Positions 19,989-23,805 of a stretch of 64,000 bases of DNA are shown one piece after another. Within the stretch, counting starts at the first letter, position 1. Every line of letters begins with the position of its first letter. The notes beneath the pieces were generated by a model. That model saw only the letters and a program-made list of their open reading frames with translations, ran no database searches and was not told the origin of the DNA. The stretch lies in NCBI RefSeq assembly GCF_055900595.2, contig NZ_CM148325.1, one strand, 5' to 3'. The position numbers and the translations under genes were made by a program.

Positions 19989-22343
19989 CTATTTTGCAGT
20001 CACAACCTGCATGCCAGACGGTTCATTTTGCAGCGCAAGAGTCAGAACTTCCTCAATGCGTTTCACAGGATGAATGTCCAGATCAGCAATTACGTTGTCA
20101 GGAATCTCTTCCAGATCGCGTTTATTTTCGAACGGAATTAACACTGTTTTAATCCCGCCGCGATGCGCTGCCAGTAGTTTTTCTTTCAAACCACCGATCG
20201 GCAGTACCTGACCACGCAGAGTGATCTCACCAGTCATTGCCACATCGGCACGAACCGGGTTACCGGTCAGGCAAGAAACCAGCGCGGTGCACATAGCAAT
20301 ACCGGCACTCGGACCATCTTTCGGCGTCGCACCTTCCGGTACGTGGACGTGGATGTCGCGTTTTTCGTAAAAATCAGGGTTGATCCCCAGTTTTTCCGCA
20401 CGCGCACGAACCACCGTTAACGCCGCCTGAATGGACTCCTGCATCACTTCGCCGAGCGAACCGGTATAGGTCAGTTTGCCTTTACCCGGAACGCACGCGG
20501 TTTCAATGGTAAGTAAGTCACCGCCCACTTCCGTCCACGCCAGACCGGTTACCTGACCGACACGGTTTTCGTTATCCGCGCGTCCATAGTCGAAACGCTG
20601 AACACCGAGATAGTCATGCAGGTTATCGCCGTTAATTTCGATATGTTTTAATGACTTATCGAGCAGTAACTGCTTAACCGCTTTGCGACACAGTTTGGAG
20701 ATTTCACGCTCCAGGCCACGCACGCCCGCCTCACGGGTGTAGTAACGAATAATGCCGATAATGGCGCTATCGTCGACGGTCAGTTCACCTTTTTTCAGTG
20801 CATTACGTTCAATCTGCTTCGGCAGCAGGTGACGTTTGGCGATGTTCAGTTTTTCATCTTCGGTATAACCGGAGAGGCGAATCACTTCCATACGATCCAG
20901 CAGTGGTGCCGGAATGTTCATGGAGTTTGACGTCGCGACAAACATCACGTCGCTAAGGTCGTAATCCACTTCCAGGTAGTGGTCGCTGAACGCTACGTTC
21001 TGCTCTGGATCCAGCACTTCAAGCAGTGCGGAAGCCGGATCGCCACGCATGTCAGAAGACATTTTGTCGATCTCATCGAGCAGGAACAGCGGGTTTTTCA
21101 CGCCCACTTTCGCCATTTTCTGGATCAATTTACCCGGCATAGAACCGATGTAAGTACGGCGGTGACCACGGATTTCCGCTTCGTCACGCACGCCGCCCAG
21201 CGCCATACGAACATATTTACGTCCGGTAGCTTTGGCGATGGACTGACCCAGGGACGTTTTACCTACCCCCGGCGGCCCAACCAGGCAGAGGATCGGTCCC
21301 TTGATTTTGTTGACACGGCTTTGAACCGCAAGATACTCAAGGATACGATCTTTAACGCGCTCCAGACCATAATGGTCGGTATCAAGGATTTCTTGCGCCT
21401 GACGCAGATCTTTTTTGACCTTGCTACGCGCATTCCACGGCACCTGCACCATCCAGTCGATATAACCACGCACCACGGTCGCTTCTGCCGACATCGGAGA
21501 CATCATTTTCAGCTTCTGCAGTTCTGCTTCCGCTTTCTCTTTTGCCTCTTTCGGCATTTTCGCCGCGTCGATTTTCCGCTTCAGGGCTTCGTTTTCGTCC
21601 GGCGCGTCGTCCATTTCACCGAGTTCTTTCTGAATAGCTTTCATTTGCTCGTTCAGATAGTACTCACGCTGGGATTTCTCCATCTGCTTTTTAACGCGGT
21701 TGCGAATGCGTTTCTCAACCTGCAGCAGATCGATTTCCGATTCCATCATTGCCATCAGATATTCCAGACGTTCGTTAACGTCGGACATCTCCAGAACGGA
21801 CTGTTTGTCAGCCAGTTTCAGCGGCATATGTGCAGCAATGGTATCCGCCAGACGCGCCGGATCGTCGATGCTATTCAGCGACGTCAGCACTTCTGGTGGA
21901 ATTTTTTTGTTCAGCTTGATGTAGCCTTCGAACTGGCTGATTGCAGTACGCACCAGCACTTCCTGTTCCCGCTCATCAATGGTCGGCGACTCCAGATACT
22001 CCGCCTTCGCAGAAAAGTGTTCGCCATTGTCAGAGAGCGCAGAAATACGCGCGCGCTGTAACCCCTCGACCAGCACTTTGACGGTGCCGTCAGGCAGTTT
22101 CAGCATCTGCAATATAGAGGCCACGGTCCCGACGGTGAAAAGATCGTTTACACCCGGCTCATCCGTTGAAGCTTCTTTCTGCGCGACCAGCATAATTTTT
22201 TTATCATGGTCCATCGCCGCTTCCAGACAACGGATAGATTTTTCCCGCCCGACAAATAAGGGGATGACCATGTGCGGATAAACCACCACATCGCGCAGCG
22301 GCAATACGGGGATTTCAATGCGTTCAGAACGCTCAGGATTCAT
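19989..22343 (-). CDS. lon: ATP-dependent protease Lon, 784 aa
   Basis: ATG at 22343 ([37 protein letters not shown]...); Walker [10 protein letters not shown]; protease-domain serine in [17 protein letters not shown]. Confidence 0.97.
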
Positions 22344-22426
22344 AGAGCTCTCTCTTAGTTTAATTTCCGCCAGGTAATCAGATGACACGACTGTGCTTCA
22401 CGCCATCTATTAACATGTACGTCAGT

Positions 22427-22453
22427 ATATGGGGATGTTTCCCCCACATTCAA
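22427..22453 (-). promoter_or_regulatory. sigma32 heat-shock promoter of lon
   Basis: Minus strand reads gcgTTGAATgtgggggaaacatCCCCATATact; matches the sigma32 -35 (CTTGAA) and -10 (CCCCATNT) elements with ~13 nt spacing, upstream of the lon start. Confidence 0.7.
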
Positions 22454-22468
22454 CGCCGAGAATAGAGG

Positions 22469-22505
22469 AAAAATTAAAGGGGAGATAAAATCCCCCCTTT
22501 TTGGT
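22469..22505 (-). terminator. Intrinsic terminator downstream of clpX
   Basis: Hairpin ggggag-ataaaa-tcccccc flanked by A/T runs on both sides, about 25 nt after the clpX stop. Confidence 0.65.
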
Positions 22506-22530
22506 TAACTAATTGTATGGGAATGGTTAA

Positions 22531-23805
22531 TTATTCACCAGATGCCTGTTGCGCTTCCGGCTTGCCATAAATCAGCAACGGCTTGCTTTGACCATCAATT
22601 ACCGATTCGTCGATAACCACTTTTTCGACGTCTTCCATGGACGGCAGATCGTACATGGTATCGAGCAGTGCGGCTTCTACGATGGAACGCAGGCCACGGG
22701 CACCGGTTTTACGCGCCATCGCTTTCTTAGCGATAGCATCCAGCGCCTCGTCACGGAATTCCAGATCCACGCCTTCCAGATTAAACAGCGCCTGATACTG
22801 CTTGGTCAGGGCGTTTTTCGGCTCTTTGAGGATCTGAATCAGAGCTTCTTCGCTCAGTTCATTCAACGTTGCGACAACCGGCAGACGACCAATGAACTCA
22901 GGGATCAGACCAAACTTGATCAGATCTTCCGGTTCAACCTGCGCCAGCAGCTCGCCTTCACTTGCTTTGTCAGATTTCGCTTTTACCGTCGCGCCAAAAC
23001 CAATGCCGGAGCCTGTTTCTACACGATGGGAAATCACTTTATCCAGACCGGCAAACGCACCGCCACAGATAAACAGGATCTTAGAGGTATCAACCTGCAA
23101 GAATTCCTGCTGCGGATGTTTACGCCCACCTTGCGGTGGAACAGCAGCTACCGTACCTTCGATCAGTTTCAACAGTGCCTGCTGTACGCCTTCACCGGAA
23201 ACGTCTCGGGTAATGGACGGGTTGTCTGACTTACGAGAAATCTTGTCGATTTCATCGATGTAGACAATCCCGCGCTGCGCTTTCTGTACGTCGTAATCGC
23301 ACTTTTGCAACAGCTTCTGAATGATGTTTTCAACGTCTTCGCCCACATAACCGGCTTCGGTCAGCGTGGTTGCATCGGCCATGGTGAACGGGACGTCCAG
23401 CAGGCGCGCCAGCGTTTCGGCCAGCAGCGTTTTACCGGAACCGGTCGGACCGATCAGCAGAATGTTACTTTTGCCCAACTCGACACCATTGCTGGTATCT
23501 CCGTTGCGCAGACGTTTGTAGTGGTTGTATACCGCGACCGCCAGCACTTTTTTCGCCTGTTCCTGACCGATAACGTAATCGTCCAGGTGGTTGCGAATTT
23601 CATGCGGCGTCGGTAGCGCACTGCGTTCACGATGCGGTGCAACTTCTTTAATCTCTTCGCGAATGATGTCGTTACATAAATCAACACATTCGTCGCAGAT
23701 ATACACGGATGGACCGGCAATCAGCTTGCGCACTTCATGCTGGCTTTTGCCGCAAAAAGAGCAATACAGCAATTTGCCTGAGCCATCTTTGCGTTTATCT
23801 GTCAT
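22531..23805 (-). CDS. clpX: ATP-dependent Clp protease ATP-binding subunit ClpX, 424 aa
   Basis: N-terminal zinc-binding CSFCGK...CDEC, Walker A GPTGSGKT; recognised as ClpX. Confidence 0.97.

Follow-up and report, generated by a model that had tools for sequence, protein, structure and literature searches.

Antisense SraA of Escherichia coli spans the lon promoter and the hairpin of the clpX terminator

In Escherichia coli, lon is transcribed under the control of sigma32 and is induced by heat shock. The small RNA SraA (psrA, t15) belongs to the clpX-lon intergenic region and is represented in Rfam as family RF02029. The lon promoter is moreover an insertion hot spot, and the literature describes IS186 as transposing readily to a single site in it. 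The clpX terminator, the lon heat-shock promoter, SraA and the IS186 hot spot are thus all previously documented. The closest characterised analogue of SraA in layout is SraG, which is transcribed antisense between rpsO and pnp and ends at the bidirectional terminator of rpsO (PMC5029454). SraG shares a long overlap with the pnp leader and controls pnp through base pairing there; its true start lies 42 nt upstream of the annotated one (PMC5029454). A further likeness is offered by bidirectional intrinsic terminators (Ju et al. 2019, as cited elsewhere), which combine a GC hairpin with an A-run and a T-run; at this locus such a hairpin stands between the convergent units clpX and sraA.

In this study, we describe how these elements are arranged in the clpX-lon region of a 64,000-nt stretch of DNA (hereafter the window; assembly GCF_055900595.2, contig NZ_CM148325.1). 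The anatomy is almost certainly that of a clpX terminator, a lon promoter and an antisense SraA which shares the clpX hairpin. Taken as a whole, the locus is probably best explained by this anatomy together with an SraA that would be an antisense by-product of no demonstrated function.

The clpX-lon spacer

Both flanking genes lie on the minus strand, clpX at 22531-23805 and lon with its ATG at 22343, and enclose a spacer of 187 nt (22344-22530). The locus is the clpX-lon intergenic region of E. coli, with three overlapping signals within about 100 bp (Table 1). Several complete genomes contain a 301-nt stretch around the spacer with 100% identity, and 5,424 of 5,426 genomes match it. The interval proposed in the initial annotation, 22389-22530, took in the clpX-proximal three quarters of this spacer. 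For comparison we used 80 orthologous clpX-lon spacers from Enterobacterales, Vibrionales and Alteromonadales, which were retrieved via the Lon N-terminus. Their usual length is 110-200 nt, and unusually long spacers occur in Mangrovibacter (218 nt), Budvicia (391 nt), a Vibrio sp. (396 nt) and a Colwellia sp. (508 nt). The Mangrovibacter lon leader carries a 32-nt insertion, and a distance of 321 nt separates the sigma32 motif of Colwellia sp. 75C3 from the lon ATG.

Table 1. Features of the clpX-lon spacer (window coordinates).
Feature	Position	Strand	Basis
SraA as delimited by Rfam RF02029	22415..22510	+	cmscan; predicted 3' end at T-run 22498-22502
Candidate SraA sigma70-like promoter, TTAACA-18-GATGTT, 8/12	22410..22439	+	relaxed hexamer scan; weak
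lon -35 region, CGTTGAATGT (TTGAA = 22449-22453)	22446..22455	-	conservation, sigma32 motif match
lon sigma32 -10, CCCCATAT	22427..22434	-	motif match, 65/80 spacers
Sigma70-like -10 TATACT, overlapping the sigma32 -10	22424-22429	-	sigma70-type scan
lon transcription start site (A), 5' UTR of 73 nt	22416	-	Cappable-seq; Kim 2012
clpX intrinsic terminator hairpin	22476..22500 (GC core 22479-22497)	-	terminator scan, folding, covariation
U-tract of clpX terminator, UUUAAUUUUUCCU	22466..22478	-	Term-seq 3' end at 22473
Hairpin in lon mRNA leader (+9 to +37)	22380..22408	-	11-bp stem, covariation
G5-N6-C4 inverted repeat (GGGGG-AAACAT-CCCC) in lon promoter spacer	22431..22445	-	BL21(DE3) IS site

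Signals of the lon and clpX strand

Sigma32 promoters combine TTGAA at -35 with CCCCATNT at -10 at a distance of about 13-15 nt, and the lon promoter shows this arrangement in the form TTGAATGTGGGGGAAACATCCCCATAT. Read on the minus strand it is GTTGAAT-GTGGGGGAAACAT-CCCCATAT, with a 13-nt spacer. The initial annotation had proposed a sigma32 promoter for lon, and this stands on three grounds: the motif is non-random, the pattern TTGAA-N12-15-CCCCATNT occurring once in the 64-kb window against 0.02 occurrences expected from shuffled sequences; its strict form recurs in 65 of the 80 spacers across Enterobacterales, Vibrionales and Alteromonadales; and a mapped start lies 10 nt downstream of it. 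Among 28 aligned Enterobacterales spacers the -35 core TTGAAT is invariant, and the remainder of CGTTGAATGT as well as ATCCCCATATACT is kept in at least 80% of them. A sigma70-type scan of the same strand finds TTGAAT-18-TATACT with 9 of 12 matches. By Cappable-seq, the lon start at U00096.2 458039 (score 188.9) is the strongest in the spacer. Kim et al. 2012 give the same start with a 73-nt 5' UTR, their promoter string ending at window position 22416. Measured from this position, CCCCATAT ends 10 nt upstream and TATACT 7-8 nt upstream, a spacing consistent with use of the promoter by both sigma32 and sigma70 holoenzymes. The resemblance to the E. coli lon heat-shock (RpoH) promoter thus consists of TTGAA-N13-CCCCATAT upstream of a mapped start, an arrangement found Gammaproteobacteria-wide, and the window shows no difference from the E. 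coli promoter. Minor Cappable-seq starts on the lon strand lie at 22451, 22399, 22372 and 22350 (scores 3-6.5).

The spacer between -35 and -10 contains the G5-N6-C4 inverted repeat, which is at the same time the 5' hairpin that Rfam assigns to SraA. In BL21(DE3), an IS4-like element of the IS421 family sits at this repeat with GGGAAACATCC duplicated at both junctions (IS region at 1455-2830 of record L083). The element splits the lon promoter between its -35 and -10 and also interrupts the SraA span. The site corresponds to the IS186 hot spot of the lon promoter: the window keeps GGGGG-AAACAT-CCCC intact, exactly where BL21(DE3) carries its element, and unlike the strains with an insertion it is uninterrupted. 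Other strains of the B lineage also carry an IS at the repeat. A count of genomes with the BL21-type junction was dropped, as 305 records (at least 80% coverage) stood against at most 56 lacking a contiguous spacer.

Within the lon leader, the hairpin listed in Table 1 shows compensatory changes in 5 of 11 pairs in a subset alignment of eight Enterobacteriaceae; 89% of its cells are paired, against at most 54% in slid controls. Owing to several G.U pairs, 74 of 83 cells pair when the stem is read on the lon strand, compared with 64 of 83 when it is read in antisense. No Rfam family matches this hairpin. At the same position Yersinia, Pectobacterium and Photorhabdus have another hairpin, formed by CTCGTGAAAC/GTTTCACGAG. 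We rejected a consensus structure of the entire leader across Enterobacterales, the variable part aligning poorly and only an invariant 4-bp stem being recovered. The lon initiation region, CCTGGCGGA..TAAACTAAGAGAGAGCTCTATG (22341-22375, minus strand), is near-invariant in the 28 Enterobacterales, far above the rest of the leader, and includes a palindrome, AGAGCTCT, beside the start codon. A search of the conserved segment CCTGGCGGA...TAAACTAAGAGAGAGCTCT-ATG against Rfam gave no match.

The clpX hairpin reads AAAGGGGGGAUUUUAUCUCCCCUUU from 22500 to 22476 on the minus strand and forms 11 pairs (-15.5 kcal/mol); it is preceded by CCAAAAA, an A-run, and followed by UUUAAUUUUU. Term-seq places an RNA 3' end at MG1655 458758(+) (Adams 2021, PMC7815308). 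The 61-nt context string given there is identical to the window, so that the 3' end, after CCCCUUUAAU, falls at 22473, seven nucleotides into the U-tract that starts at 22478, counting three stem-paired U's. Because of this mapped end we regard the hairpin as a working terminator, as had been supposed in the initial annotation, where it was taken to be able to terminate clpX transcripts. In 77 of the 80 spacers a GC hairpin is flanked by an A-run upstream and a T-run downstream. Among 21 Enterobacterales, 5 of the 11 pairs of the helix show compensatory changes, and in the SraA consensus structure 91.8% of its cells are paired. In three Colwellia species the clpX terminators, about 40-90 nt past the clpX stop codon, are unusually long hairpins rich in A and T; they measure about 52 nt and differ between the species by compensatory changes.

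The 3' end at 22473 is flagged as bicyclomycin-sensitive (Adams 2021, PMC7815308). The same study reports a Rho-termination region at MG1655 458831(+), corresponding to window position 22400 (Rho score 1.78, p = 7.7e-8), at a point where 15 nt of the lon leader have been transcribed. Together, the bicyclomycin-sensitive clpX end and the Rho region suggest that Rho acts on read-through or leader transcripts here.

Flanked by an A-run and a T-run, the hairpin is shaped like a two-way terminator. It is more stable on the clpX strand (-15.5 kcal/mol) than on the SraA strand (-11.1 kcal/mol, with an A.C mismatch), and its helix pairs in 221 of 231 cells across species on the former strand versus 212 of 231 on the latter. 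The curated list of Adams 2021 contains 3' ends at the shared hairpin for the clpX strand only; a SraA-strand 3' end is absent from it under three conditions, a weak negative from one list. Compared with the bidirectional terminators mentioned above, termination at this hairpin is documented in the clpX direction only. We considered the upstream A-run as a marker of selected two-way termination and rejected it. Taxa without the Rfam sraA hit have 6.1 A per 10 nt upstream of their clpX terminators, versus 6.2 in taxa with it; the run is therefore not informative on two-way termination and is generic to clpX terminators (77 of 80 taxa) regardless of SraA.

Placement, detection and conservation of SraA

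Rfam RF02029 matches the spacer over its full model (1-95 of 95) on the plus strand, with 106.7 bits (E = 8e-18) against a gathering threshold of 56 bits. The initial annotation had mentioned a small RNA of this name as reported from the clpX-lon region, and the match (22415-22510) confirms its presence. What had been missing is the placement: SraA lies on the opposite strand, over the lon promoter, and shares the clpX hairpin. By the strand of the match it is antisense to both clpX and lon. Within the Rfam limits it starts one base from the lon start site and crosses the lon -10 and -35, and its predicted terminator is the clpX inverted repeat read on the plus strand, that is, from its reverse face. 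Of 28 other Enterobacterales spacers, 20 have a match above threshold to this family, with position and strand unchanged, and these matches span four families of the order. It is below threshold in Photorhabdus, Providencia, Arsenophonus, Rosenbergiella, Budvicia, insect symbionts, vibrios and Alteromonadales. Locus, flanking genes and opposite-strand orientation are those of the described SraA, and no sequence difference was found. On the minus strand, weak matches to sraA (21.9 bits), DapZ (21 bits) and the L20 leader (19 bits), all with E >4, were dismissed as chance hits to a terminator shape.

Concerning the promoter of SraA, a stricter scan of the spacer yields none on the plus strand. 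A relaxed scan gives the candidate listed in Table 1, which predicts a start near 22446 and sits on top of the lon promoter. Weaker candidates are ACGACT-18-TAACAT (7/12, start near 22423) and CAGTAT (near 22435). In the alignment of 28 spacers no candidate is conserved beyond close relatives, TTAACA occurring only in the closest genera. The Cappable-seq entries examined are those of the MG1655 plus strand, the lon strand, and the list of Kim et al. 2012 holds only the lon start over the spacer range. The ATG at the SraA start opens a 16-codon frame (MYVSIWGCFPHIQRRE), for which we considered a small protein or leaderless mRNA. This was rejected owing to a second-codon stop in relatives (Kluyvera, two Enterobacter-labelled genomes and Superficieibacter); the ATG itself is absent outside the closest genera.

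The RNA is reportedly about 120 nt in its original description, and the EcoCyc gene reportedly has 57 nt, so that its 5' end would map to 22447. In the EcoCyc-based annotation of Adams 2021 (PMC7815308) sraA is gene G0-8861. There, positions 458758 and 458831 are labelled 'antisense to sraA' by a rule of lying within 50 bp of gene ends, which puts the annotated 5' end at or left of window position 22450.

With respect to expression, the name SraA goes back to an experimental detection of the RNA (Argaman 2001, according to later papers). A study from 2025 detected it in all RNA-seq conditions, flat across nutrient conditions. Overexpression changed none of four traits in a screen of biofilm, motility and fimbriae, and in a Klebsiella hfq mutant the abundance of SraA was unchanged. 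In Salmonella, an sraA deletion had a phenotype in mice as part of a mutant pool, which was not reproduced individually. In Yersinia ruckeri, SraA is reportedly induced early in biofilm formation.

Conservation of SraA follows the signals of the opposite strand. In an alignment of 21 species, all 32 invariant columns fall in the lon -10, the lon -35, the A/T runs or the hairpin. The invariant block AGTATATGGGG is the complement of the lon -10 and ACATTCAA that of the -35, and the stretch between -35 and terminator varies freely. Since every invariant column is a sense-strand promoter or terminator signal, the conservation of SraA provides no independent evidence of function. We conclude that such sense-strand signals account for the high Rfam scores.

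These observations bear on the question whether a discrete small RNA exists at all. If the Rfam match merely picked up the conserved lon promoter and clpX terminator from their non-coding side and the reported signals were pervasive antisense noise, one would expect the invariant columns to be sense-strand signals, as they are. The equal frequency of the A-run with and without an Rfam hit, the weak plus-strand promoter candidates and the lack of a SraA-strand end in the curated Term-seq list point the same way, and a sraA feature is absent from the current RefSeq annotations of MG1655, W3110 and BL21(DE3). We nevertheless consider this reading very unlikely: SraA owes its name to experimental detection (as far as citing papers relate Argaman 2001), it is retained as a gene in the annotation of Adams 2021, and the 2025 study reports it in every RNA-seq condition.

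The Rfam consensus of SraA consists of three helices, and compensatory changes occur in the terminator helix only. That helix is also the sole one predicted by RNAalifold from the SraA alignment, the 5' helices not being recovered. Helix 1 is invariant because both its arms are promoter elements. Helix 2, the 5' helix in which GGGG pairs with pyrimidines of the promoter spacer, shows one-sided changes only. Its in-register pairing nonetheless reaches 84.8% of cells on the SraA strand versus 60% on the lon strand and 35-77% in slid controls, the advantage of the SraA strand arising through 26 G.U cells. This pairing may be a hint of RNA-level selection, which would speak against a by-product. 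Minimum-energy folds of SraA from single species are weak (-2 to -9 kcal/mol) and mutually different.

A trans-acting RNA with the two-hairpin fold of Rfam and targets elsewhere in the genome would fit the presence of RF02029 in four families of Enterobacterales, the better pairing of the 5' helix on the SraA strand, the detection in all RNA-seq conditions and the variation during Y. ruckeri biofilm formation. Several findings make it a highly doubtful reading: the 5' helices carry no both-sided changes, one side being the invariant lon -10, they are missing from the RNAalifold prediction, and the folds of individual species are weak and discordant. Moreover, the unpaired body between -35 and terminator, where the sequence varies freely, is not conserved. 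The RNA is Hfq-independent, without overexpression phenotype, and its deletion phenotype is unconfirmed.

Proposed role of SraA

Most likely, SraA is an antisense transcript of low abundance and without a demonstrated function. At this locus, clpX transcripts stop at the hairpin 22476-22500 and its U-tract, leaving the 3' end at 22473. Transcription of lon proceeds from the sigma32 promoter TTGAA-N13-CCCCATAT, overlapped by the sigma70-like TTGAAT-18-TATACT, and starts at 22416. On the opposite strand, SraA reads through the lon -10 and -35 and would end at the T-run of the clpX hairpin, its sequence conservation presumably being imposed by the overlapped lon promoter and clpX terminator. Any effect of SraA would most plausibly be local, through competition, as its candidate promoter shares DNA with that of lon. 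Alternatively, SraA might pair locally with the 3' UTR of clpX and with RNA reading through from clpX into lon, to both of which it is complementary. Whether SraA is hitch-hiking on these signals, and acts at most in cis, we judge to be about an even bet.

In a stronger version of local action, SraA would regulate lon, or read-through from clpX into lon, as an antisense RNA acting in cis, after the manner of SraG. It could compete with the lon promoter, by being transcribed or by promoter occupancy, or a longer SraA could pair with the lon leader and alter its processing or translation. The layout recalls SraG, that is, an antisense RNA between co-directional genes which ends at an upstream bidirectional terminator, and the best promoter candidate of SraA lies on top of the lon promoter. 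As the true 5' end of SraG was 42 nt upstream of its annotation, a longer SraA is conceivable as well. We still find a regulator of this kind rather unlikely. With the lon start at 22416 and the Rfam 5' end at 22415, SraA and the lon mRNA overlap by 2 nt (22415-22416). In contrast to SraG with its extensive overlap and demonstrated effect on pnp, SraA thus covers lon promoter DNA but hardly any lon mRNA, and at the Rfam boundaries it lacks the substantial complementarity to the downstream leader that characterises SraG. Such complementarity would arise if the true 5' end of SraA lay further upstream. No strong plus-strand promoter is found upstream, pairing in the hairpin of the lon leader favours the lon over the antisense strand, and an effect of SraA on lon is not reported in the available literature.

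More speculatively, the lon sigma32 promoter and the sigma70-type candidate promoter of SraA (22410-22439), lying on the same DNA on opposite strands and firing apart, might bind polymerase in a mutually exclusive way and form a switch governed by sigma-factor competition. We rate this as a long shot, with hardly any expectation that it is correct. If it were true, SraA synthesis would report and reinforce a 'lon basal' state, heat shock would flip the site to lon, and the weak in-register pairing of the 5' helix would reflect selection on a real RNA.

What is added here to the description of the SraA family is that the columns it conserves fall on elements of the lon promoter and of the clpX terminator, and that covariation is confined to the terminator helix. 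As a methodological point, the strong covariance-model match at this locus is not evidence of a functional RNA. Furthermore, a deletion or insertion 'in sraA' also hits the lon promoter, and sraA phenotypes therefore need controls for lon expression.
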